A stretch of DNA of 24,000 nt, taken from contig DJFY01000086.1 in NCBI GenBank assembly GCA_002431545.1, positions 2,848 through 26,847 on the forward strand, given 5' to 3'. How positions within the stretch are numbered: the stretch's first letter is position 1; each line of letters starts with the position of its first letter. Made by a program: the position numbers and the translations under genes. Positions 1-12,959 of the stretch are shown here, piece after piece. The stretch is from Cellvibrionales bacterium UBA5860 (lineage in GTDB: Bacteria; Pseudomonadota; Gammaproteobacteria; Pseudomonadales; Porticoccaceae). The notes beneath the pieces were generated by a model. It ran no database searches, was not told where the DNA came from, and saw only the letters and a program-made list of their open reading frames with translations.

Positions 1-902
1 ATCTCGTAATACCGCTCGATAAACTGCACGCAATGGCTAAATGACCGGGCCACAAGAAGCAGTGGCACAACCATGATCAGCGGTTCAATCGGGTCTCCTA
101 ACCAGCCGACAAAACCAAAACCCCAAATCGCGGCGACCAGACTACTGACCACGGGCACGACAACGCCGACAATATTGCGCATGTACAGCACCAGCGACAA
201 CAACAAAGCTGTGCCGGTGATTGCAAAAATCGTTAGCATTTGTTTTTCGTAGTAGTACACCCAACCGGTGAGCATGGGCTGGCCCGCGACATAAATCTCA
301 TGAACATCGTCACGCTCAGCCTCTACAATATTTTCCTGAATAAAATTAAAAACCACGCCGTAATCCAGCAAACGCTCGATAAAAGTGGCCTGAATCAATG
401 TGGCGGTTTCATCCTGGGAAATAAGGAAAGTCTGACTACTGGGTGACTTTTTGACCCGCTCGATAAACTCGCGCATCTCCTCCGGCGTCTTGGGAGCCGA
501 ATCGCCCATTAACGGCTGACTATCGATTCCAAAGGGCGTGGCCTGCGCGTAGCGAGCTTTTTCCGTGCTGATGGAAAGTATCTGGTCGTGATCGACACCT
601 GGCGTGAGGTCGATATTGCGCGTCATATCCCAGACTTTCTGCAAAGTGTCCGGCTGATAGATCGATTTACCGTCAGTACGCTTGACCATGACGGTAACGG
701 TAAGAGGGTTGCCAAAATTCGGGTGATCCAGATAGGTTTCTACAAATGGATGACTCTTTGGCAGCAAGTCAGTAAATATGGTTTTTAATTCAACCTTGTA
801 TACACCGGCGGCGAAAAAGGCAGTAATAACGGTCATGATGAGCATTGACGCCCACCGGTGGTGCATGACCAATCTGGCTAGCCGATAACGAACGGTTTCC
901 AA
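1..902 (-). CDS. RND-superfamily (MMPL/HpnN-like) membrane transporter. About 300 N-terminal codons are present and the 3' end runs off the window.
   Basis: This ORF is absent from the supplied track because it is open at the window edge. Manual translation of the minus strand gives one uninterrupted frame from about 902 to 1: LETVRYRLARLVMHHRWASMLIMTVITAFFAAGVYKVELKTIFTDLLPKSHPFVETYLDHPNFGNPLTVTVMVKRTDGKSIYQPDTLQKVWDMTRNIDLTPGVDHDQ...YVAGQPMLTGWVYYYEKQMLTIFAITGTALLLSLVLYMRNIVGVVVPVVSSLVAAIWGFGFVGWLGDPIEPLIMVVPLLLVARSFSHCVQFIERYYE. The layout is TM1, a large periplasmic loop, then a TM2-4 block, as in MMPL/RND exporters and as in the 852-aa ORF at 10401. The start is TTG at 902 or ATG at 866, and an in-frame TAG lies at 926-924. 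The short + strand ORFs at 240-446 and 588-788 are antisense shadows of this gene. Confidence 0.7.
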   Translation of the reverse strand, partial: METVRYRLARLVMHHRWASMLIMTVITAFFAAGVYKVELKTIFTDLLPKSHPFVETYLDHPNFGNPLTVTVMVKRTDGKSIYQPDTLQKVWDMTRNIDLTPGVDHDQILSISTEKARYAQATPFGIDSQPLMGDSAPKTPEEMREFIERVKKSPSSQTFLISQDETATLIQATFIERLLDYGVVFNFIQENIVEAERDDVHEIYVAGQPMLTGWVYYYEKQMLTIFAITGTALLLSLVLYMRNIVGVVVPVVSSLVAAIWGFGFVGWLGDPIEPLIMVVPLLLVARSFSHCVQFIERYYE

Positions 903-1396
903 CGCGCTTTCCCCCTGGCAAGACTACAAGAAGTTTGTTATTAGTTCTTGATTCGGTCATGTGGTGCGAATCCAGCTGACCTAACCGGATTTTCCGCCAT
1001 CCCGAAAAGCGCCTGACTCTATCATGGCGATTCTGTGACGTCCACAATATAAATAAATATGACTGTAAAAAAGCCTCTATTTTCAGTAACTTTGTAAGGG
1101 TCCTTACGTAATATACGTCAGCACGCAGACATAAATAGAGTAAGCTTTAGTTATTCATGTAGGATCGTGCACTGGGATCTGACACCCATTCAATCTTTCG
1201 TGATATCTTCAAATAGAATCTATCTTCACTACGGCAACCGCGACTTTGTCGAACGATTATTTAGAAGATGGGGGGAAATACAGGAATAAAAAAGCTATCG
1301 CTTTTAAGAAGCACGGAAATGGAAGCTCGTTGTTCTCTTTACAGCGGTGCAACGAGGCGCTACACAACAGCCACACCCGCCGACAGGCAAAGCCAC

Positions 1397-2068
1397 CTAA
1401 CGCGAGATGCGTGCTTTCCAAACAACGACCAAACCGGCGGCAATCATCAGGCAAAACAAACCAGCACCCCAAAGCCAGCGCGGCATGGTTTCGTCCGCCC
1501 GCTCGAAAGTAGCACTGACTCCGGGAACACTCCAGAGGTCACCACTCCCGCGACCAACCACAAGCTGGGCCTTCATACCTTTTTCCATATGCTGAGCGAT
1601 GTCGCAATGTACAAGATAAGTCCTGTCATCGCTCGGCACAATAAAGGTGCCGCTTTGACGATGCCCTCCGGCAGCTTCCATATGAAACATGCCCTGGTCA
1701 TACAAGTATTTCGGCAATCCGTGCACCATCCACTGGTGGCGCACACGGTCTTGATTTATAAAGGTCACCGTTATTCGACTGCACGGCTCAACCTGCCATT
1801 GATGATCGCTAAAACCAAAAGTCGTGCCTGGGAAAGGTTTCGCATACTCAGTACCAGCAGTCACCTCGAACTGGTACTCCCGGCGTATTTCTGAACAATC
1901 CTCTGGCAACTTATCGGCATTCTCATTCATCACCATCCCTGTTTCGTCCATTTTCATGGCGTGATGATCGTTGTGGTGGTGATGCTCCATCTCTGGCTGC
2001 GCTTGGGTAATACCGGAGTAGAGCAGCAGCACACCGACGACAAAGTAACCGACGAACGAGCTAATCAT
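1397..2068 (-). CDS. Membrane-anchored type-1 cupredoxin (plastocyanin/azurin-like, CopI-like) with an N-terminal His/Met-rich tract. It is the last gene of the CuMMO operon.
   Basis: 223 aa. It has a signal peptide (MISSFVGYFVVGVLLLYSGITQA|QPE). A metal-binding tract follows at residues 27-47 (MEHHHHNDHHAMKMDETGMVM). Type-1 copper ligand pattern: RHQWMVHG (H111/H116), then VHCDIAQHMEKGM, which is C155-x4-H160-x4-M165. C-terminal hydrophobic helix WLWGAGLFCLMIAAGLVVVW. The start overlaps the upstream MCO stop by 8 nt. Confidence 0.8.
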   Translation of the reverse strand: MISSFVGYFVVGVLLLYSGITQAQPEMEHHHHNDHHAMKMDETGMVMNENADKLPEDCSEIRREYQFEVTAGTEYAKPFPGTTFGFSDHQWQVEPCSRITVTFINQDRVRHQWMVHGLPKYLYDQGMFHMEAAGGHRQSGTFIVPSDDRTYLVHCDIAQHMEKGMKAQLVVGRGSGDLWSVPGVSATFERADETMPRWLWGAGLFCLMIAAGLVVVWKARISR

Positions 2069-3767
2069 TGCGCTTCTTCACGAAGGTCCAGACCCACAAA
2101 AGACCCAGCAACAAGCCGATCACGATAGTCAAAGCCAAAATCCTAAGCGTTGAAATCGCGTACGGCTCGACGCTTTCGAGCAGGGACGTCGAACCATCCG
2201 CTGAATCTCTGCGATAAAACTCAGGTGCCAGAAAATTATTCCAGTCCAGACCAAAAGTCATCGGCCAACCATCATCCTGCAGGTATTTGTCGTAAACAAT
2301 TGCGCTGACATTCCCGCCCGGCCCCAGGCCGTTGGTGGTGACGCCTCGCTCCCGATGATCGTGCATCAACCAGACGCCAGGGCCATAGCTATGCAGACCA
2401 TCGTCCTTTGTCGACAAGTCCAGATCCACGCGCTGCGCCGACGCTATCCAAACCACATCGCGGGTAATACGGGCCGGCTCGGGATGCTCGACACCATCGT
2501 AGTGAGTGATAGTCACTTTATGTCCGTGCGTGTGGAGCGCCACTCCTTCGCTCCCGGCGTTTAACACGCGCAGCTTCACCCGCTCATCTGGGGCAGTCAC
2601 GATCAGTGAATCCCTGGCGGTATAGGGAAAAGAGCGTCCATTAAGCATGTAATATTCGAAATCCGCCTGGCTGATGTCGTATTGCCGGTGCACCCGCTGC
2701 GTGATAACACGTGGATCGTTACTCGACTGCACCGCTTCTCCGAGTTCTTTATCGAAGTCCTGATAATGAAGATCGTATTCTCGGTCGTAGCTTTCCTTGC
2801 TGGCCACGGAAGGGTGACGTACCAGCCCATCACCGATGTTAAAAGTCTGCAGCCAGTTGTTGGGCCGGTTCTCCTCGACTACGAACAAACCGTTTAAACC
2901 CATCAGGATGTGCGCCTGCACCTCTACGTGGCAGTGATAGAACATCGAGCCCGCCTGTCGCGGCTGCATCTCATAAGTGCGCTGCTTACCCGGCATCAAA
3001 GGCTTTTCGCTGGTGACGGGAACACCGTCATTACCTTCACCGTTCTCGTCCAGAAAGGGATGGTCTACCCCGTGAAAATGGATCGTATGCGGCATGTAAT
3101 GGGTATTCTCCAGCGTCACCTTGATCTGGTCGCCCTGCTCTACACGAATGGCCGGCGAAGGCATCCTTAACCCAGGCTGCGCAATCAGCGACTCAAAATT
3201 TTCCGTCGACATGCCAACCGACTTGGGGGCAAACACCCAAAACCCAGGTTTGATTCCGGGCGCGACTGAATACTGGACCACGGGTTCGTTGATATCTGGC
3301 GAGGCGCCGTTAAGTTCGAATACTTCCAAACGAATATGGATTTCGTCCGGGTCGCCATCCTGATCCAGGTCGCGACCCTTGACGACAGCGTCAGGAGACA
3401 GGCGGGCATTCATCAAGGTCATATGGCCGACGTTGTTCGTGCCTTTGACAAACGCCGCGATGGCGTGGGGATTATCTGCAAGGCAACCGGGTTCGGCCAG
3501 AATATCGATGCCGGCTACAGTCTGCGCCTTGCGCCAGCCCTTGAGATCAGGAGGACAGATATCGCCGATTTCATCGTAATCGGAATCTTGCAGCGGCCGG
3601 GCAGGAATAGTAGCAGGCGCTTCCCGATAGTCAGTAGCACCAAACTGCTTGTCATACCAGACGCGCCAGTCGCGCGGATACCATTGCCATGGTACTAACG
3701 CTACGATTAATAACGTCAGAACGACTAAGACAAGGGCTCGAACAAGGACTCTCAAAACTTCAGGCAA
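2061..3767 (-). CDS. Two-domain multicopper oxidase (NirK/2dMCO superfamily) with an N-terminal TM helix, a roughly 170-aa extension and a C-terminal TM helix.
   Basis: 568 aa. Four HxH pairs are present. H227-T-I-H230-F-H232-G is L3-type (HxxHxH). Y-H278-C279-H280-VEVQA-H286-IL-M289-GLNG is L4-type with the T1 Cys/His/Met. L-H412-T-H414-G-H is L1-type (HxHG). WLM-H469-D-H471 is L2-type. N-terminal TM is LVRALVLVVLTLLIVALV and C-terminal TM is LRILALTIVIGLLLGLLWVW. The start is TTG, 15 nt after the preceding stop. Confidence 0.85.
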   Translation of the reverse strand: MPEVLRVLVRALVLVVLTLLIVALVPWQWYPRDWRVWYDKQFGATDYREAPATIPARPLQDSDYDEIGDICPPDLKGWRKAQTVAGIDILAEPGCLADNPHAIAAFVKGTNNVGHMTLMNARLSPDAVVKGRDLDQDGDPDEIHIRLEVFELNGASPDINEPVVQYSVAPGIKPGFWVFAPKSVGMSTENFESLIAQPGLRMPSPAIRVEQGDQIKVTLENTHYMPHTIHFHGVDHPFLDENGEGNDGVPVTSEKPLMPGKQRTYEMQPRQAGSMFYHCHVEVQAHILMGLNGLFVVEENRPNNWLQTFNIGDGLVRHPSVASKESYDREYDLHYQDFDKELGEAVQSSNDPRVITQRVHRQYDISQADFEYYMLNGRSFPYTARDSLIVTAPDERVKLRVLNAGSEGVALHTHGHKVTITHYDGVEHPEPARITRDVVWIASAQRVDLDLSTKDDGLHSYGPGVWLMHDHRERGVTTNGLGPGGNVSAIVYDKYLQDDGWPMTFGLDWNNFLAPEFYRRDSADGSTSLLESVEPYAISTLRILALTIVIGLLLGLLWVWTFVKKRND

Positions 3768-3782
3768 TAAACTTGATCATTG

Positions 3783-4460
3783 TCATTTCGGCCGAAAAAT
3801 ATGGCTACGCCCGGCCCCATATATAAATATTGCACACAGCAAAAAAAGCAGCGCGAAATACTTTACATACTTTCCGTATTGCGGCGAGCCAACGGCGAAC
3901 GGAAATACAGACGTGTATTTCAACCCTGTTTCCAGGTGATGCGCATTGACAATGCCGATGTAGCCTCCCTCCTGGACGAAGTTGTAACGAACATTCATCA
4001 CGCCTTTCTGGAATTGCCGAGGCTCCTGATAATAAATAGTTGCCTTTTCTATCGCTTCGGGACCGCCTAAATCCGCATAGGTCGCGGTTACGCCGATGCT
4101 GTTAACATCGCGCACGATACGAAAATCAAGCTCCATGTTACGAAGTTCGTCGCTGATAAAATCAATCACAAATATACTTTCCGCGACCAACGGGATATCT
4201 TCGCAAAATTCCTGGGTCGCTCGCTGTTTTGGCAGGTAGCCTGTGAAATGCGCCTTGTAACGATCGATTTTTATAATACAGACGTCGTCTTCTACCGACA
4301 CTCCACCGTGCCCGAATACGGCGGGAGCAAATAGCGTGACGCTAACGAATAACGCCAACGCCGTTAAATAATGGGCAGGCCAGGAAAAAAAGTTCACAAA
4401 ATAGTCTTGATGCTTATGAAAACTGCCAGTGAGCGCACGGACCCATCCCATATGACTCAA
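3783..4460 (-). CDS. Bitopic periplasmic protein in the PmoD/AmoD position: signal/TM, a roughly 145-aa periplasmic domain, then a C-terminal TM. Homology to PmoD is unverified.
   Basis: 225 aa. The TTG start at 4460 overlaps the xmoB TGA stop (TTGA). An alternative ATG lies at 4451. Hydrophobic segment YLTALALFVSVTLFAPAVFG is followed by HGGVSVEDDVC, so the predicted mature N-terminus is His51. There are two Cys (C61, C86). C-terminal helix YFALLFLLCAIFIYGAG. The architecture matches what is described for PmoD, but I cannot confirm sequence homology by eye. Confidence 0.75.
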   Translation of the reverse strand: MSHMGWVRALTGSFHKHQDYFVNFFSWPAHYLTALALFVSVTLFAPAVFGHGGVSVEDDVCIIKIDRYKAHFTGYLPKQRATQEFCEDIPLVAESIFVIDFISDELRNMELDFRIVRDVNSIGVTATYADLGGPEAIEKATIYYQEPRQFQKGVMNVRYNFVQEGGYIGIVNAHHLETGLKYTSVFPFAVGSPQYGKYVKYFALLFLLCAIFIYGAGRSHIFRPK

Positions 4461-5713
4461 AAGAAAGTCGGCAGAATAGGGCCGCCAATTTCCTGATAAT
4501 AGCGCTTGCCGTCCTCGTCAAAGTAGAACAACAAACCAGCAAAGCGGCTGTCCGGGTCATTAATCAGCCCGGTCATACGGTACTGTTCCCATAATGCATC
4601 GGAGGCAACCATTTTCACCGGACGCGATGCTCCCGGCGGAATAACACTGTCACCGGTAACCGTGAGGCCATCAAAAGCTACCATTTCTTCTTCCGGATAA
4701 GTCGTCGGACCACTGATAGCAGAGTTGAGAAAACGAATGTTCGCCGTAAGGAACTCACCGATGCTATAGGCTTGATCGGAACGATTTGTCAACACCGCAT
4801 TGATCATCAAACTGCGCCCGGCCAATTCGTATCGCGCGCTCTCTACTTCGATATCAAGTTCACCCGTCGGCGGCGTTAGCCCGACCACATCCACCTTCCC
4901 TGTTTGCAACGGTATAGTAATTGGATATTTATTCTCCCCCCACAAATAGCCGCCCAAAATAACCGCCAGCGTTAGCGTGAAGAAGACACTGCTTACGACG
5001 AAATCTCGCTTGGTAAGAATTTCATCGGCTTTATCCTGCCCCATCTCTCTGACACGTATAAACCGCGGGATAAAAAGTTCACGCCGAGCCAGCCAATAAA
5101 CGATATAGGCAATCCCCAGGACGATCCAGACAACGTGCCAAACAAACACATCGCCCAAACCATAGGTCTCGAGATTCACAGTCTCACCGGTAAGCGTTGT
5201 GGCTTCATTCACAAAAGGTACCGGGCCGCCGGAATGATCTTCAACCTCCACCCACGTGCCCTTGCCGACCAAAGAACCCGCATCTTTTACGTTTAAAAGC
5301 GAGTGAACATGGTAGCGACCTGGAATTCGAGCCCGCATGATAATGCGGTATTCGTACACTTTGCCGAGCTCGAAAGCTGTCGAACGCACCATGGGCACTT
5401 CGTTTACAGATGCGTCGAGCTTGATAAAAGTAGGCCCGGGCACCCCGATATTGAGGTAAACAGTATCTTCAGGACTCGGCAACTGATTGGGCCATAGCTC
5501 AGAGGTATAAAACTTCCCGGTCACTGTGACGATATCGCCTACCTTGACCTTGAGTGGCGCAACATTTAAATCGAACCAGTGCACGGTCCGCATACGCATA
5601 CTCGCCAATTGGGCGCGCTCACCGTGAGCAACCACATCGCCTGCGAATAGAGACAGCAACAACACCAAGACGAGATTTACCGTTGCAGAACGCGCTGAAA
5701 AAACAACTTTCAT
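4457..5713 (-). CDS. pmoB: Copper membrane monooxygenase subunit B (PmoB/AmoB family).
   Basis: 418 aa. A signal peptide ends ...GDVVA|HGERAQLASMRMRTVHWFD (compare PmoB HGEKSQAAFMRMRTIHWYD). This gives an N-terminal His30 plus GRYH135VH137SLLNV, the His/HxH CuB ligand set. Two internal TM helices (VFVWHVVWIVLGIAYIVYWL, VVSSVFFTLTLAVILGGYLW) sit between two soluble domains, as in PmoB. Confidence 0.93.
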   Translation of the reverse strand: MKVVFSARSATVNLVLVLLLSLFAGDVVAHGERAQLASMRMRTVHWFDLNVAPLKVKVGDIVTVTGKFYTSELWPNQLPSPEDTVYLNIGVPGPTFIKLDASVNEVPMVRSTAFELGKVYEYRIIMRARIPGRYHVHSLLNVKDAGSLVGKGTWVEVEDHSGGPVPFVNEATTLTGETVNLETYGLGDVFVWHVVWIVLGIAYIVYWLARRELFIPRFIRVREMGQDKADEILTKRDFVVSSVFFTLTLAVILGGYLWGENKYPITIPLQTGKVDVVGLTPPTGELDIEVESARYELAGRSLMINAVLTNRSDQAYSIGEFLTANIRFLNSAISGPTTYPEEEMVAFDGLTVTGDSVIPPGASRPVKMVASDALWEQYRMTGLINDPDSRFAGLLFYFDEDGKRYYQEIGGPILPTFF

Positions 5714-5737: not shown

Positions 5738-6538
5738 TTACGCGATGCGCTTGGCATACTTGTCCAGTCCATTAATCCACTTACCCAGCAGCAAAAACAA
5801 GGCATAAACGACTATGCCGACGAGGCCCGCAAAGACAGCAGTCAAGGGCGTCACCGAACCACCAAAAGTTCGCAACGTCGACTCTTCGATAATTCTTAGG
5901 TATTCGGGAGTCGTTGTCCGAATATATTGGAAGCCCATCAGGTCTGCCATTGACAAAAGCATGCCATTGAATTCCACCGGCACTTTGGAGGCCGCGAAGA
6001 TAGGCCAGTTAAGCGGCCACACCAGCGCTCCGAAAAGCCCACCGCCGATAATGCAGGAAATGATCAGGCTACGCGTCATAATCAAACTGCAATCGAGCAA
6101 AATACCCAAGCCAATGTATGTAGACGCGGGAACAAACGACATCGGGAAGTAGGTGAACTCGTAAAAATTCAGGTAGCGGCTCAGCCACGACGTCAGACAC
6201 AACAATGTCGTTACGGCCGTAGCGACTACGGGCAACCGCAAGCGGTACCAAAGCCCATAAGCAAGCGGCCCGATAAACATCAGCAGGGTCATTGGGGCTA
6301 CGACTGGCCACCAACGGCGATCCCGCCAGTCAATCCAGTAATCCCAGTCCCCGGCCGTTAGAGTAAACTGTATCTGAACACCCAGGGCCAAGAACGAAAA
6401 AAGCACCAAGATAAATATGCCATCAAACCGCCGGTAGAGCTTCATGGCTTTGGGATTGTCAAGGGACTTGACATCCAGCCTTCGCTGTCGAACCTCGTTT
6501 TCTGACATCAATTCTGTGGAAACAGACTGTTCACTCAT
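5738..6538 (-). CDS. pmoA: Copper membrane monooxygenase subunit A (PmoA/AmoA family).
   Basis: 266 aa. Hallmark motifs are LTAGDWDYWIDWRDRRWWP and MGFQYIRTTTPEYLRIIEESTLRTFGG (compare [25 protein letters not shown]). It is a polytopic membrane protein. SD GAGGTG precedes the ATG. Confidence 0.93.
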   Translation of the reverse strand: MSEQSVSTELMSENEVRQRRLDVKSLDNPKAMKLYRRFDGIFILVLFSFLALGVQIQFTLTAGDWDYWIDWRDRRWWPVVAPMTLLMFIGPLAYGLWYRLRLPVVATAVTTLLCLTSWLSRYLNFYEFTYFPMSFVPASTYIGLGILLDCSLIMTRSLIISCIIGGGLFGALVWPLNWPIFAASKVPVEFNGMLLSMADLMGFQYIRTTTPEYLRIIEESTLRTFGGSVTPLTAVFAGLVGIVVYALFLLLGKWINGLDKYAKRIA

Positions 6539-6590: not shown

Positions 6591-6627
6591 GAAAAATTAT
6601 CCCCGCAACCAAAAGCTTGCGGGGATA
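6591..6627 (-). terminator. Intrinsic-terminator-like hairpin in the xmoC-xmoA intergenic spacer. It could be an attenuator or an RNA-processing/stability element.
   Basis: In the mRNA sense the sequence is UAUCCCCGCAA-GCUUUUGG-UUGCGGGGAUA, an 11-bp perfect stem with an 8-nt loop (6598-6627). It is followed immediately by AUUUUUC (6597-6591). It lies 50 nt after the xmoC stop and about 55 nt before the xmoA start. Confidence 0.55.
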
Positions 6628-6676
6628 AAGGTAGGGATTCACCGCTGCCCTCAAGGCAAAGGAATCAGGTCATAGC

Positions 6677-7486
6677 TCAGATAACCTGACGCTCCTCCGT
6701 AGATGCCGTACTTTCTGTCGCGGTGGTCTGAGCAATCAGGCGGCCCATGTTAGTAAAGATTTGCACACCCAGGGGCACCAGGAAAAACAGCGACCAGCCC
6801 AGGAAAACAAAACCCCAGTGCACGGGCGCGGCGAACAACTCTTCAGCATAGAAGAAAGTATGCCCCCACTCGTTGAAGCCGTAGTTGGGCATGATCATAA
6901 AGATACCGAGCACTACGCACAGGAAGGGGATCGATATTTTATTCATAAAAGCCGGAATTCTGGTATGAGCCCAAATGAAGGTTGGAATGAGAAACGCGGT
7001 AAGCGCGGGTAAAGCAAAGTAGAAGATAAAGATATGTGTTGGCGTGAAGTCCGTATCGCGGATCGTGACCTGATGCCAGGCAGCATCCGACTCGACCGCA
7101 TTGGTGGCAATTGCAGCCACCCAAATCCCAATTACCGTAAGAAAGCTCAGCAATTTCCAGTAACGGGAAAGCTCCAACTCAGGGGAGATTGCGCTAGCAT
7201 CCCGCTCCCGCGTCAGCCATACGTATACCGAGGTACAGACGGTAAACAATCCGAGAAAGAGCACTTCCCCGTAGAGCACGGGCATCCAGTACTTCTGAAA
7301 CTCTGGAGAGTAGAAGTCAGTGCCAACGGAGAAAGCCATAGTATTGAGGTATATGCGGTATGCGAGACCGATACCCAACAGTATTGAAGCTAAAATATAG
7401 ACAATTCGATTGCGCCTGAAATGGCCAGCCAGCTTGCTTTCCGCCCCGGAATCCAGCGCGACTGTTGCAGTATTAGTTTGTGCCAT
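6677..7486 (-). CDS. pmoC: Copper membrane monooxygenase subunit C (PmoC/AmoC family).
   Basis: 269 aa. Motifs are FYSPEFQKYW, ES-D134-AAW-H138-QVTIRDTDFTPT-H151 (D-x3-H-x12-H) and F-N205-EWG-H209-TFFYAEELFAAPV-H223-WGF (N-x3-H-x13-H). The spacings match the CuC (D156/H160/H173) and CuD (N227/H231/H245) ligand sets of Methylococcus capsulatus Bath PmoC as I recall them. Both sets show the same 22-residue offset. SD AGGGG precedes the ATG. Confidence 0.93.
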   Translation of the reverse strand: MAQTNTATVALDSGAESKLAGHFRRNRIVYILASILLGIGLAYRIYLNTMAFSVGTDFYSPEFQKYWMPVLYGEVLFLGLFTVCTSVYVWLTRERDASAISPELELSRYWKLLSFLTVIGIWVAAIATNAVESDAAWHQVTIRDTDFTPTHIFIFYFALPALTAFLIPTFIWAHTRIPAFMNKISIPFLCVVLGIFMIMPNYGFNEWGHTFFYAEELFAAPVHWGFVFLGWSLFFLVPLGVQIFTNMGRLIAQTTATESTASTEERQVI

Positions 7487-10400: not shown

Positions 10401-12959
10401 ATGACTGATCGCCTGATCGCGGTTTATGACCGCATCATTCTCGAACAGCCAAAACTCGCCCTTGCCCTGGTTTTACTGCTTGCAGCCGTACTGGCTATAG
10501 GCTTACCTAATTTCAAGCTCGATGCCTCGGCGGACTCGCTGACCCTCGAACACGACACTGACCTCGACTATTTCCGGGAAATCAACCAACGCTACGGCAG
10601 TGGCGATTTTCTGGTGGTGATGTATACGCCGCACAACGGCGATCTATTCTCCGATCAGGCTTTGCAAACACTGGATGCACTCGGCAAAGACCTGAAAAAA
10701 ATCGATGGCGTCACGAGTGTCAATTCGCTGGTCACCGTACCGTTGTTATACAGCCCGAAAGTGTCCGTCGAATCCCTGCAGGAAGAACAACGCACCCTGC
10801 TGACACCCGGTGTCGACCGCGAGGCCGCCAAGCGCGAATTCCATACCAGCCCAGTCTACCGAAACCTGATTCTGAGCCCGGACGGTAATACTACCGCCGT
10901 TTTAGCCACCATCGCCCAGGACCAGCGCTACATCGACCTGGTACGCCGGCGCGACGCTCTGCGTCTCAAACGCGACCAGGAAGGATTGAACGACAGCGAA
11001 AAGGCCGAACTTGAGCAAGTCAGCCAGACATTCCTCGACTATCGCACCGAGCGCGCCGCTATCGATCGGGCGCGGGTAGAGGCGGTTCGCCAGCTGATGG
11101 GCCGTTACCGCGATCGCGCGGAGGTCTTTCTTGGCGGCCCCAGCATGATTACCGCCGACATGATCGACTTCGTGCGCGGCGATCTGCAGATTTTCGGCGC
11201 CGGCATTACGCTGTTCATTATCCTGACGCTAAGCCTGATATTTCGCCAGCTCCTCTGGGTTGTCTTACCCCTGGCAACCTGCGGCCTGACCATCACCATC
11301 ATGCTGGGCTGGTTGAGCTGGATCGACTGGCGGCTGACCGTGATCTCTTCCAATTTTGTAGCGCTTCTCCTGGTACTGACGATGGCGGTAACCATCCATT
11401 TAATCGTTCGCTACAGAGAACTACACACTGCGCACCCCGAAGCGGACCAGCATCAACTGGTTCGCGATACCGTATACCTAATGGCCAGACCCTGCATTTA
11501 TACGGTACTGACAACGATGGTGGCCTTCGCCTCGCTGGTAGTCAGCGATATTCGTCCCGTCATCGATTTCGGCTGGATGATGACTATTGGCCTACTGGTC
11601 ACCCTGTGCCTTGTATTTGTCGTCATTCCCGCCGGTATGTTAATCGCCGGGAAAAGCGCCGGGAGTCAGACCAACCACACGACCCACTTGCCAGAATTTT
11701 TTTCCGATGTAACAGAGCGACGCGGCGGCCTGGTACTCATTCTCTCGGCGGTACTGGGCGGGCTGGCGATGTTTGGCATCGCCCGCCTGGAAGTCGACAA
11801 CCGGTTTATCGATTATTTCAAAACTGACACCGAGATCTATCAGGGGCTTTCCGTCATCGATCAGAAGCTCGGCGGTACGACACCCTTGGACATTGTCATT
11901 CAGGCTCCGGCCTTCGCACAGGATTTAGAAACAAGTGACAGCGAAGAGCCGGATCCATTTGCCGACGACCCACTTGAAGACGACCCTTTTGCAGAAGATC
12001 CATTTGCCGATAGTTTTGGCGACGATCCCTTTGCCGAACCCGACCCCAATAAAAAGATCAATAGCTACTGGTTTACCCGCGCCGGCCTTGAAGATCTGGA
12101 AAAAATTCAGCGTTTCCTGGACGATTTACCCGAAATCGGCCGGATAGACTCATTGGTCACCGCCTTTCATGTCGCTAACGATCTCACCGGGCGCCGGCTT
12201 AACGACTTCGAGCTGGCCTTCATGCGGCAAAGCCTATCGCCCGATCTAAACAACTTCCTGATCGCCCCATATCTCGACGACGAAAGTAACGAAACCCGCC
12301 TGACCATGCGGACAATCGAGACCGGTACCTCGCTCAATCGACAGGAACTACTAAACGAAATCGAAGGTTTTCTAATCGACGAAATGGGCATCGAGCCCGA
12401 GCGCTATCGGCTCAACGGTTTGCTCGTGCTTTACAACAATATGCTGCAAAGCCTATTTAGTTCGCAGATCATGACCCTGGGCGCGGTCTTCCTGGGCATC
12501 ATGCTGATGTTTTTGGTGTTGTTCCGCTCTCTGAGCCTGGCGCTCATCGCCATTGTGCCGAACTTGCTGGCTGCCTCCGTCGTGCTCGGCGTGATGGGTC
12601 TGGCCGGTATTCCCCTGGATATGATGACGATAACGATCGCATCGATCACGGTCGGCATCGGCGTCGACGATACCCTGCACTATATTTACCGTTTTCGCGA
12701 GGAATTCCCCCGGGATCGCAACTACATCGCCGCCATGCACCGCAGCCACGCGTCTATCGGCATTGCGATGTACTACACCTCTGTCGTTATCATCGTCGGT
12801 TTTGCCGTACTGATACTGTCGAACTTCATGCCCTCAGTCTATTTTGGTCTGCTGACCGGGCTAGCCATGCTGGTGGCCCTGGTGGCGGCACAGACCCTGC
12901 TGCCCAAATTACTGCTCATTTTCAAACCCCTCGGCACTGAAAACCAGCCCTCGATTTGA
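10401..12959 (+). CDS. RND-superfamily (MMPL/HpnN-like) exporter, 12-TM with two periplasmic loops. The second loop carries an acidic DPF-repeat insert.
   Basis: 852 aa. SD AAGGA precedes the ATG. There are two TM bundles (about residues 270-420 and 690-840) and large loops. The start of the second loop carries an acidic tract, SDSEEPDPFADDPLEDDPFAEDPFADSFGDDPFAEPDP. Confidence 0.9.
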   Translation: MTDRLIAVYDRIILEQPKLALALVLLLAAVLAIGLPNFKLDASADSLTLEHDTDLDYFREINQRYGSGDFLVVMYTPHNGDLFSDQALQTLDALGKDLKKIDGVTSVNSLVTVPLLYSPKVSVESLQEEQRTLLTPGVDREAAKREFHTSPVYRNLILSPDGNTTAVLATIAQDQRYIDLVRRRDALRLKRDQEGLNDSEKAELEQVSQTFLDYRTERAAIDRARVEAVRQLMGRYRDRAEVFLGGPSMITADMIDFVRGDLQIFGAGITLFIILTLSLIFRQLLWVVLPLATCGLTITIMLGWLSWIDWRLTVISSNFVALLLVLTMAVTIHLIVRYRELHTAHPEADQHQLVRDTVYLMARPCIYTVLTTMVAFASLVVSDIRPVIDFGWMMTIGLLVTLCLVFVVIPAGMLIAGKSAGSQTNHTTHLPEFFSDVTERRGGLVLILSAVLGGLAMFGIARLEVDNRFIDYFKTDTEIYQGLSVIDQKLGGTTPLDIVIQAPAFAQDLETSDSEEPDPFADDPLEDDPFAEDPFADSFGDDPFAEPDPNKKINSYWFTRAGLEDLEKIQRFLDDLPEIGRIDSLVTAFHVANDLTGRRLNDFELAFMRQSLSPDLNNFLIAPYLDDESNETRLTMRTIETGTSLNRQELLNEIEGFLIDEMGIEPERYRLNGLLVLYNNMLQSLFSSQIMTLGAVFLGIMLMFLVLFRSLSLALIAIVPNLLAASVVLGVMGLAGIPLDMMTITIASITVGIGVDDTLHYIYRFREEFPRDRNYIAAMHRSHASIGIAMYYTSVVIIVGFAVLILSNFMPSVYFGLLTGLAMLVALVAAQTLLPKLLLIFKPLGTENQPSI

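Follow-up and report, generated by a model that had tools for sequence, protein, structure and literature searches.

The gene at positions 2061 to 3767 (minus strand) of the window, a stretch of 24,000 nucleotides of contig DJFY01000086.1 from Cellvibrionales bacterium UBA5860 (Porticoccaceae), encodes an oxidase whose core is, judging from its sequence and structural model, almost certainly that of a catalytically complete two-domain multicopper oxidase of type C. The protein is very probably tethered to the membrane at both ends, and its gene is the middle member of a three-gene cassette that also encodes a PmoD-like protein and a membrane-anchored cupredoxin. In the window, the cassette makes up the last three of six genes in an operon that begins with a hydrocarbon-type copper membrane monooxygenase (CuMMO; gene order CAB). 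We hold with moderate confidence the reading as a whole, namely that a membrane-tethered type-C oxidase acts with its cassette partners as a CuMMO accessory in copper redox handling. The features of the oxidase gene are as follows, where L1 to L4 are the copper ligand motifs, T1 is the type 1 copper site and AF2 is AlphaFold2.

2061..3767, minus strand: two-domain (type-C) multicopper oxidase gene; 568 aa, TTG start; Pfam Cu-oxidase_3 and Cu-oxidase_2; PDB 3G5W and 2ZWN.
3693..3761, minus strand: N-terminal hydrophobic helix, aa 3-25, probably an uncleaved signal anchor; Kyte-Doolittle maximum 3.1, AF2 helix 3-24.
3345..3689, minus strand: family-specific N-terminal extension, aa 27-141; small alpha/beta segment with invariant Cys71/Cys95.
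3342..3371, minus strand: acidic loop DLDQDGDPDE of DxDxDG type, aa 133-142, directly before the first cupredoxin strand.
2868..3344, minus strand: cupredoxin domain 1, aa 142-300, with the T1 site and half of the trinuclear ligands; AF2 strands from E142, Cu-oxidase_3 at aa 202-300, aligned to 3G5W 30-128.
3072..3089, minus strand: L3 motif H227-T-I-H230-F-H232; invariant, aligned to PHTIHWHG of 3G5W.
2901..2936, minus strand: L4 motif H278-C279-H280-x5-H286-x2-M289, with the T1 Cys, His and Met and two trinuclear His; invariant, with the spacing of HCHVNVNEHVTM of 3G5W.
2664..2867, minus strand: inter-domain linker with a helical insert, aa 301-368; AF2 helices 321-326, 340-347 and 352-362.
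2283..2663, minus strand: cupredoxin domain 2, aa 369-495, carrying L1 and L2; from AF2 and the 3G5W alignment.
2520-2534, minus strand: L1 motif H412-T-H414-G-H416, in cupredoxin domain 2.
2355-2363, minus strand: L2 motif H469-D-H471, in cupredoxin domain 2.
2073..2159, minus strand: C-terminal transmembrane helix, aa 537-565, with KKRND after it as the predicted cytoplasmic tail; Kyte-Doolittle, AF2 helix 537-565, conserved.

Direct inspection of the sequence gives the copper motifs in the order L3, L4, L1, L2, starting at H227, H278, H412 and H469, exactly as a first-pass annotation of this DNA had placed them. Conservation is reported here for 95 oxidase homologues and 70 PmoD-like homologues, and gene-neighbourhood counts for 80 retrieved loci. 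All 12 copper ligands, including the eight histidines of the trinuclear cluster, are invariant. In a HMMER alignment, the four motif blocks match those of 3G5W residue for residue, including the H-C-H-x5-H-x2-M spacing, so that the HxH pairs line up with known trinuclear ligands, a point on which the earlier proposal could have failed. The two Pfam domains score so far above their cut-offs (Cu-oxidase_3: 85.8 bits, cut-off 21; Cu-oxidase_2: 64.3 bits, cut-off 20.4) that a chance match is ruled out and, together with the four ligand motifs, they place the protein in the multicopper oxidase superfamily. The top PDB matches by sequence are 3G5W (E-value: 1.2e-31) and 2ZWN (E-value: 5.8e-31). The AF2 model, a single chain built on the 95 homologues, has a predicted local distance difference test score (pLDDT) of 89.4 and a predicted template modelling score of 0.86; its top Foldseek matches are again 2ZWN and 3G5W (target-normalised TM-score of approximately 0.8), followed by NirK structures. 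The core thus contains two cupredoxin domains, the N-terminal one with the T1 site and L3/L4 and the C-terminal one with L1/L2. Because motif order, 3G5W alignment, AF2 model and Foldseek matches all agree, the type-C assignment proposed at first pass is confirmed. Three further polar residues close in sequence to the T1 ligand His227 (H223, D235 and H236) are also invariant.

Several characterized proteins can be compared with the window oxidase. BCO (McoN) of Nitrosomonas europaea (3G5W) has the same two cupredoxin domains with the same division of T1 site and motifs between them, identical L4 spacing and a target TM-score of 0.80, but it is only about 24% identical, is 318 aa in length, lacks both the membrane helices and the N-terminal extension, and has a linker about half as long (3G5W 128-163 against residues 302-369 of the query in the HMMER alignment). 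It is encoded with cytochromes c and nirK and is not known to have PmoD-like and cupredoxin partners. The metagenomic two-domain laccase mgLAC (2ZWN), which is the top Foldseek match (E-value: 4.7e-26, target TM-score 0.79-0.80), has the same type-C arrangement but is a soluble protein of 339 aa without anchors, extension or known partner cassette. NirK shares the two-cupredoxin fold and is a trimer, as predicted for the window oxidase, and its tethered donor domains (cupredoxin or cytochrome c) are a precedent for the oxidase-cupredoxin fusions described below; it differs in having a three-His type 2 (T2) site instead of a full eight-His trinuclear cluster. The Nmar_1354-type archaeal oxidase (9CCK) resembles the cassette in combining a two-domain oxidase with an extra cupredoxin in a CuMMO-dependent organism. 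In contrast to the window oxidase, it is archaeal and permanently fused and is reported to oxidize NH2OH, and the sequence similarity between the two is low (E-value: approximately 1e-10) and limited to domain 1.

The eukaryotic membrane-anchored multicopper ferroxidases Fet3p and hephaestin have a C-terminal transmembrane helix and hand oxidized metal to a membrane partner; like the bacterial cuprous oxidases CueO, CopA and PcoA, they act on a metal ion at the membrane or in the periplasm. These proteins have three or six domains in an architecture not homologous to that of the window oxidase, and CueO, CopA and PcoA carry Met-rich inserts and Tat signals, both of which are absent from it. 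Assignment to the CopA/PcoA/CueO cuprous oxidases was rejected: the scores are 50.7 against a cut-off of 478.95 (TIGR01480) and 36.5 against 525 (NF008205), the core has two domains, a Tat-like motif is found in only 4 of the 95 homologues even with a loose twin-arginine pattern, and the neighbourhoods are not enriched in copper-resistance genes.

Each terminus of the oxidase carries a conserved hydrophobic helix of transmembrane length with flanking basic residues. The first-pass annotation had predicted helices at residues 8-25 and 541-560, and this prediction is borne out with slightly wider limits by hydropathy (residues 4-28 and 538-563) and by the AF2 model. Both helices are retained in about 90 of the 95 homologues, the exceptions being gene calls truncated at the N-terminus and a single protein whose C-terminal tail is long. 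For stretches of 17 residues, the median hydropathy maximum is 2.16 in the N-terminal and 2.45 in the C-terminal segment, and interior segments reach no more than 1.47. As R6 and R10 precede the first helix and KKR follows the last, both ends are predicted to be cytoplasmic (N-in, C-in) and the bulk of the protein periplasmic, with the core on the periplasmic face of the inner membrane. The first helix is probably an uncleaved signal anchor because the homologue alignment has no conserved small residues at positions -1 and -3 after it. It is directly followed by an aromatic-rich stretch, PWQWYPRDWRVWY, conserved as P-W-Q-W-Y-P...W..W-Y. Copper would be loaded in the periplasm, since a Tat signal is absent. 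At the other end, the conservation of the helix and the overlap of the oxidase stop codon with the start of the next (cupredoxin) gene show that the helix does not result from a misplaced stop; furthermore, gene callers drew identical boundaries for this open reading frame (ORF) on four independent metagenome contigs. A small-x3-small motif (G552-L-L-L-G556) lies in the C-terminal helix, with a similar G/A/S-x3-G/A/S pattern in many homologues, which might serve helix packing in a trimer or with the C-terminal helices of the partner proteins.

Between the first helix and the core, the earlier annotation had noted an extension of about 170 residues. That length is indeed unassigned by Pfam, with matches beginning at approximately residue 200, but the first cupredoxin strand of the AF2 model spans residues 142-152, immediately after the acidic loop, so the segment that is truly extra is residues 27-141 (approximately 115 aa). 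In the full model, it is built from a pair of helices, a hairpin and a second pair of helices, with pLDDT >90 for residues 70-150, and the invariant Cys71 and Cys95 probably form a disulfide. The acidic motif pointed out at first pass is present at residues 133-142, where D133, D135, D137, G138, D139, P140 and D141 are invariant. A DxDxDG-type loop of this kind matches positions 1, 3, 5, 6 and 9 of an EF-hand-like loop, and calcium binding is plausible on the basis of this pattern. When residues 27-141 were searched against 1.84 billion representative proteins, 66 hits were obtained; all significant matches lay near the N-terminus, and every long hit checked by Pfam was an oxidase of the same architecture. 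Judged by these hits, the extension occurs solely at the N-terminus of this oxidase family. Pfam has no family for it (a relaxed search gave a non-significant TSP_3 match at a different acidic stretch), and the extension folded alone (model pLDDT 83) had no Foldseek match in the PDB.

The extension and the double anchors had been described as unusual features of this protein; instead, they define a family, with a relative of the oxidase carried by at least 569 species genomes in a scan of one genome per species. Carriers include Porticoccaceae, Arenicellaceae, Woeseiaceae, Halieaceae, Pseudohongiellaceae and Binatia. A protein search with the oxidase gave 2,904 clusters at E ≤ 1e-5 among 8,000 candidates scored, and the best 120 of those clusters are 532-597 aa in length and 55-100% identical to the query, of which they cover 86-100%. 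The gene order PmoD-like, oxidase, membrane-anchored T1 cupredoxin is fixed: a PmoD-like gene lies upstream of the oxidase in 79 of the 80 loci (the single miss is at a contig end) and a cupredoxin gene lies downstream in 76 (contig ends account for all misses). The first-pass annotation did not point to these obligatory partners. Oxidase and cupredoxin form a single polypeptide in P0290 (933 aa), P0268 (838 aa), P0276 (712 aa) and at locus L041, and the PmoD-like protein is joined to the oxidase in P0275. Because of these natural fusions and the invariant gene order, we infer that the three cassette proteins act together on the same side of the membrane. No account of a PmoD-like/oxidase/cupredoxin cassette was found in the searchable literature. 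Compared with characterized type-C members, the double tether, the N-terminal segment, the doubled linker and the obligatory PmoD-like and cupredoxin partners are new.

In the window, the oxidase is gene 5 of a tightly packed row of six minus-strand genes that starts with CuMMO subunits C, A and B. The other five genes are:

6677-7486, minus strand: CuMMO subunit C; 269 aa, Pfam AmoC.
5738-6538, minus strand: CuMMO subunit A; 266 aa, Pfam AMO.
4457-5713, minus strand: CuMMO subunit B; 418 aa, Pfam Monooxygenase_B.
3783-4460, minus strand: PmoD-like gene, first of the cassette, encoding a PmoD/AmoD-like copper protein of 225 aa with a signal peptide, C61-x9-H71...C86 and a C-terminal transmembrane helix; PDB 6CPD, E=7e-12.
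1397-2068, minus strand: cupredoxin gene, third of the cassette, encoding a membrane-anchored single-domain cupredoxin of 223 aa with a signal peptide, a His/Met-rich tail, T1-type ligands and a C-terminal transmembrane helix.

In the order C-A-B-PmoD-like-oxidase-cupredoxin, the spacings are 138, 24, -4, 15 and -8 nt; that is, the PmoD-like gene shares 4 nt with pmoB, 15 nt separate it from the oxidase gene, and the oxidase gene shares 8 nt with the cupredoxin gene. A scan of the gaps from pmoB through the cupredoxin gene found no terminator-like sites.

The 225-aa partner resembles PmoD/AmoD (6CPD) in sequence, in its cupredoxin-like periplasmic domain, in its invariant Cys pair (C61 and C86 in 70 of 70 homologues, with H71 also invariant), in having a signal peptide and a C-terminal transmembrane helix, and in its position right after pmoB. 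It is unlike 6CPD in having C-x9-H in place of the CuA-forming Cx7MxH and in being always paired with the oxidase and cupredoxin. Membership of the CuA-forming PmoD subclass was therefore rejected, as C61-x9-H71...C86 has no Met at the corresponding position of Cx7MxHxnC (PMC6189053). In most homologues, the signal peptide ends in A-x-A followed by H-G-G, with a Gly at that position in a Woeseiaceae-type subgroup. For the window protein, a mature N-terminus of HGG is probable from this pattern, and it is possible that the N-terminal His and the invariant H71 form a histidine-brace copper site.

The cupredoxin has T1-type ligands (H111, C155, H160 and M165) within an L4-like H154-C-D-x3-H-x4-M motif, an invariant Cys58/Cys96 pair and a His/Met-rich tail (HHHHNDHHAMKMDETGMVMN) with a conserved TGMVMN motif. 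Its Pfam matches (Cu-oxidase_2 and SoxE) are weak, and because a PDB profile search with the family gave only a marginal match, limited to a laccase L4 motif, the fold assignment relies on the motifs and these Pfam matches. The invariant H154-C155-D156-x3-H160-x4-M165 differs from the L4 pattern in having Asp in place of the second His, and H111-x4-H116 is likewise invariant, so from its motifs the protein looks like a derivative of a multicopper oxidase domain. The combination of H-x4-H and H-C resembles the T1 and partial T2 ligand pattern of NirK domain 1, and the protein, instead of acting simply as an electron carrier, might form an additional copper site at an interface.

The association of the oxidase with the CuMMO, which had been claimed from the window by itself, is supported by the overlapping and tightly spaced operon genes and by a phylogenetic split. 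Among the 61 loci with enough upstream sequence, 26 have CuMMO genes directly upstream of the cassette; overall, a CuMMO precedes it in about a third of loci, and about two thirds of family members have no CuMMO beside them, which the first-pass annotation had not noticed. A neighbour-joining tree has a single split that separates the CuMMO-linked oxidases from all others, with bootstrap support of 100/100. The CuMMO-linked members come from Porticoccaceae, other Gammaproteobacteria, one bin labelled Alphaproteobacteria, and Binatia. Within this clade, the oxidases are at least 53% identical, PmoB identity falls to approximately 25%, and the distances of the two proteins correlate (Spearman rho 0.87). 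Based on the split and these distances, the window oxidase belongs to a CuMMO-dedicated subfamily that was inherited or transferred with the monooxygenase. No clade-diagnostic residues were found at ≥85% conservation in both CuMMO-linked and unlinked oxidases.

The CuMMO of the window is itself divergent. Subunit A scores 252.6 (cut-off 290) and 244.4 (cut-off 318) with the NCBIfam models for ammonia and methane monooxygenase, respectively, and subunit C scores 225.3 (cut-off 319) and 201.6 (cut-off 281). These scores fit a hydrocarbon-type enzyme rather than an ammonia or particulate methane monooxygenase, and its closest relatives are Porticoccaceae hydrocarbon-type CuMMOs, a group discussed in an earlier study that does not mention downstream genes (bioRxiv 10.1101/2022.11.07.515388). 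The two halves of the operon have different nearest relatives. Locus L042, from a Porticoccaceae metagenome-assembled genome, has the closest CuMMO (C 91%, A 89% and B 79% identity, tblastn), yet its oxidase is only 69% and its PmoD-like protein 64% identical, while loci L001-L012 have the closest oxidase (approximately 78%) and a CuMMO just 66-77% identical. Recombination between the two halves is suggested by this pattern, and the operon would then be a mosaic. In Binatia loci L063, L064, L067 and L080, a second PmoD-like gene is found upstream of the CuMMO C gene, a 117-aa ORF lies between A and B, and a pyrroloquinoline quinone (PQQ) alcohol dehydrogenase gene directly follows the cupredoxin gene.

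Cassettes are also found in other settings. At 15 other loci, the cassette lies beside an aa3-type cytochrome c oxidase operon that encodes COX2 with two cytochrome c domains, COX1, two COX3 proteins, COX4 and UbiA/CtaB, with SURF1 and CtaG nearby. A PQQ alcohol dehydrogenase gene is found beside the cassette in 12 loci, including five Binatia loci that also have the CuMMO, and some of the PQQ alcohol dehydrogenase loci also carry cytochrome c. In the retrieved loci, copper-resistance genes are not enriched near the cassette, and the remaining loci are heterogeneous. In the study by Fisher et al., every PmoD homologue known in 2018 came from a genome that encodes a CuMMO, and some PmoD genes of a different motif class lay near multicopper oxidase genes (PMC6189053). 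In contrast, the PmoD-like partner described here is present at many loci without a nearby CuMMO. This suggests that the restriction of PmoD to CuMMO genomes may fail, where absence of the CuMMO was judged by adjacency to the cassette.

The remainder of the window contains housekeeping genes, including leuS, lptE and holA, so the DNA is chromosomal, and a search of the window against Rfam identified no RNA family. In the 138-nt gap between CuMMO C and A, a strong 12-bp GC-rich hairpin followed by a T-run is located at positions 6597-6628 (minus strand), and this could be an attenuator or an mRNA-stabilizing element inside the operon. Beyond the cupredoxin gene, approximately 470 nt (924-1396) have no ORF, after which an MMPL/RND-type transporter gene (1-923, minus strand, outside the ORF list) starts near position 923 and runs off the edge of the window. 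An MMPL/RND-type gene also follows the cassette in Porticoccaceae loci, together with Ycf48-like, DUF1329 and DUF1302-like genes. The window has a second MMPL gene at 10401-12959 (plus strand).

Taking these results together, the following mechanism can be proposed. The oxidase would be a homotrimer, with each trinuclear cluster shared by domain 1 of one subunit and domain 2 of its neighbour; electrons would enter at the T1 copper in domain 1, and O2 would be reduced to water. These three points are expected because solved relatives behave in this way. The uncleaved N-terminal anchor and the C-terminal helix would hold the enzyme on the periplasmic face of the inner membrane, where the cupredoxin most likely hands electrons to the T1 site of the oxidase, a path suggested by the fusions and by NirKs with tethered donors. 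The His/Met-rich tail and the PmoD-like protein would capture Cu(I) for oxidation at the membrane surface at the expense of O2, thereby supplying or protecting copper sites that face the periplasm, namely those of the CuMMO or, for the sister clade, those of aa3-type oxidases.

Copper redox handling at the membrane surface is put forward tentatively as the physiological role, somewhat short of an even chance. It is favoured for four reasons. First, PmoD is a copper-binding protein, and a methanotroph that has lost it shows a growth defect that depends on copper (PMC6189053). Second, copC, copD and pCuAC occupy the equivalent position in other CuMMO operons (PMC6189053). Third, the cytochrome oxidase-linked loci carry assembly genes (CtaB, CtaG and SURF1). 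Fourth, the missing Tat signal implies periplasmic copper loading. The His/Met-rich tail of the cupredoxin, with its conserved TGMVMN, also counts in favour of this role. A number of observations weigh on the other side. Family identity and role have both been deduced from sequences and models; the oxidase has no Met-rich insert of the CueO/CopA/PcoA kind and scores far below the NCBIfam cut-offs of those proteins; and the lack of enrichment of classical copper-resistance genes near the cassette is unfavourable. In addition, the 12 PQQ alcohol dehydrogenase loci, some with cytochrome c, fit periplasmic electron transport at least as well, and the full T1 ligand set of the cupredoxin is typical of an electron carrier rather than a chaperone.

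These last observations lead to an alternative that is unlikely: the cassette may be a periplasmic terminal-oxidase branch in which the cupredoxin, perhaps with the PmoD-like protein, collects electrons from dehydrogenases or cytochrome c and passes them to the oxidase and O2, as a non-pumping sink that balances the redox chain around the CuMMO, the PQQ alcohol dehydrogenase and the aa3-type oxidase without any copper trafficking. The cupredoxin, with its T1 set and occasional fusion to the oxidase, does resemble the tethered donor domains of three-domain NirKs and of archaeal oxidase 9CCK, and the neighbours of the cassette (PQQ alcohol dehydrogenase, cytochrome c and cytochrome oxidase operons, with no copper-resistance genes) are those that such a branch would have. 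However, it leaves unexplained the invariable PmoD-like partner, the His/Met-rich tail and the clean CuMMO-dedicated split, and a sink that wastes reductant would be odd in an operon whose enzyme needs reductant.

It is improbable that the enzyme is a small-molecule or metal oxidase unrelated to copper supply, with hydroquinones, phenols, Fe(II) or Mn(II) as candidate substrates at the membrane surface. Laccase-type activity is known from type-C relatives (2ZWN carries the name laccase), H223, D235 and H236 near His227 could form a substrate site, and one JGI record calls the homologue P0036 a manganese oxidase; the last of these names is an automatic annotation, however, and the neighbourhoods hold no pointers to Fe or Mn metabolism or to aromatic catabolism. 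Such a function would not explain the fixed protein partners or the CuMMO-specific clade. Slightly less probable again is that the PmoD-like protein and the cupredoxin carry electrons to the copper site of the monooxygenase, with the oxidase as a regulator or safety valve. The cassette is in the operon and has been inherited together with CuMMOs that are very divergent, a part for PmoD in electron transfer has been put forward (PMC13058606), and the physiological reductant of CuMMOs is an open question. Against this, about two thirds of the cassettes have no CuMMO beside them, the PmoD-like protein is without the Cx7MxH motif needed for a CuA site, and an oxidase that reduces O2 would compete with such delivery instead of contributing to it.

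A NirK-like nitrite reductase, which the first-pass annotation had offered as an alternative, or another nitrogen-oxide enzyme, including one that oxidizes hydroxylamine like archaeal Nmar_1354, is very improbable. The fold is common to NirK and the oxidase, and an archaeal two-domain oxidase does oxidize NH2OH (PMC13058606). However, eight invariant trinuclear histidines take the place of the three-His T2 site, the TIGR02376 score is 44.3 bits against a cut-off of 296.3, and NirK membership was rejected on these two counts; moreover, hydroxylamine is not an expected product of the linked CuMMO, which is of the hydrocarbon type and falls below the AmoA and AmoC cut-offs. We give almost no credence to an annotation artefact, whereby a cleaved signal peptide and a wrong stop or start would reduce the mature protein to a soluble two-domain oxidase of the ordinary kind: in the window sequence taken singly, a short h-region with Ala23 could in principle allow cleavage by signal peptidase, but the conservation of both segments, the variable -1/-3 positions, a C-terminal helix that lies inside the ORF and ends in KKR before a stop overlapping the next start, the agreement of independent gene calls, and fusion proteins that keep a topology consistent with the helices all speak against it.

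The locus bears on a long-standing open question, the supply of copper and electrons to CuMMOs, for which PmoD is the sole accessory protein with a genetic phenotype. Here, a PmoD-family protein is always paired with a tethered two-domain oxidase and a blue-copper protein, and one subfamily of the cassette has travelled with CuMMOs as divergent as 25% identical. The cassette offers three expressible proteins and a testable hypothesis: electron transfer from the cupredoxin to the oxidase, cuprous oxidase activity and copper-dependent phenotypes. The two-domain multicopper oxidases, which attract interest as evolutionary intermediates linking cupredoxins, NirK and laccases, also gain from this family a form that is anchored in the membrane and has a new N-terminal segment.

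More broadly, and more doubtfully, the cassette could be a widespread, unrecognized system that loads copper into, or supplies electrons to, O2-activating membrane copper enzymes, with one subfamily serving CuMMOs across phyla and the other aa3-type oxidases. If this is true, the oxidase and the cupredoxin would be the missing functional partners of PmoD, and PmoD-family proteins would extend beyond methane, ammonia or alkane oxidizers. The position of the cassette beside cytochrome oxidases already suggests that PmoD-like proteins work outside methane and ammonia oxidizers.

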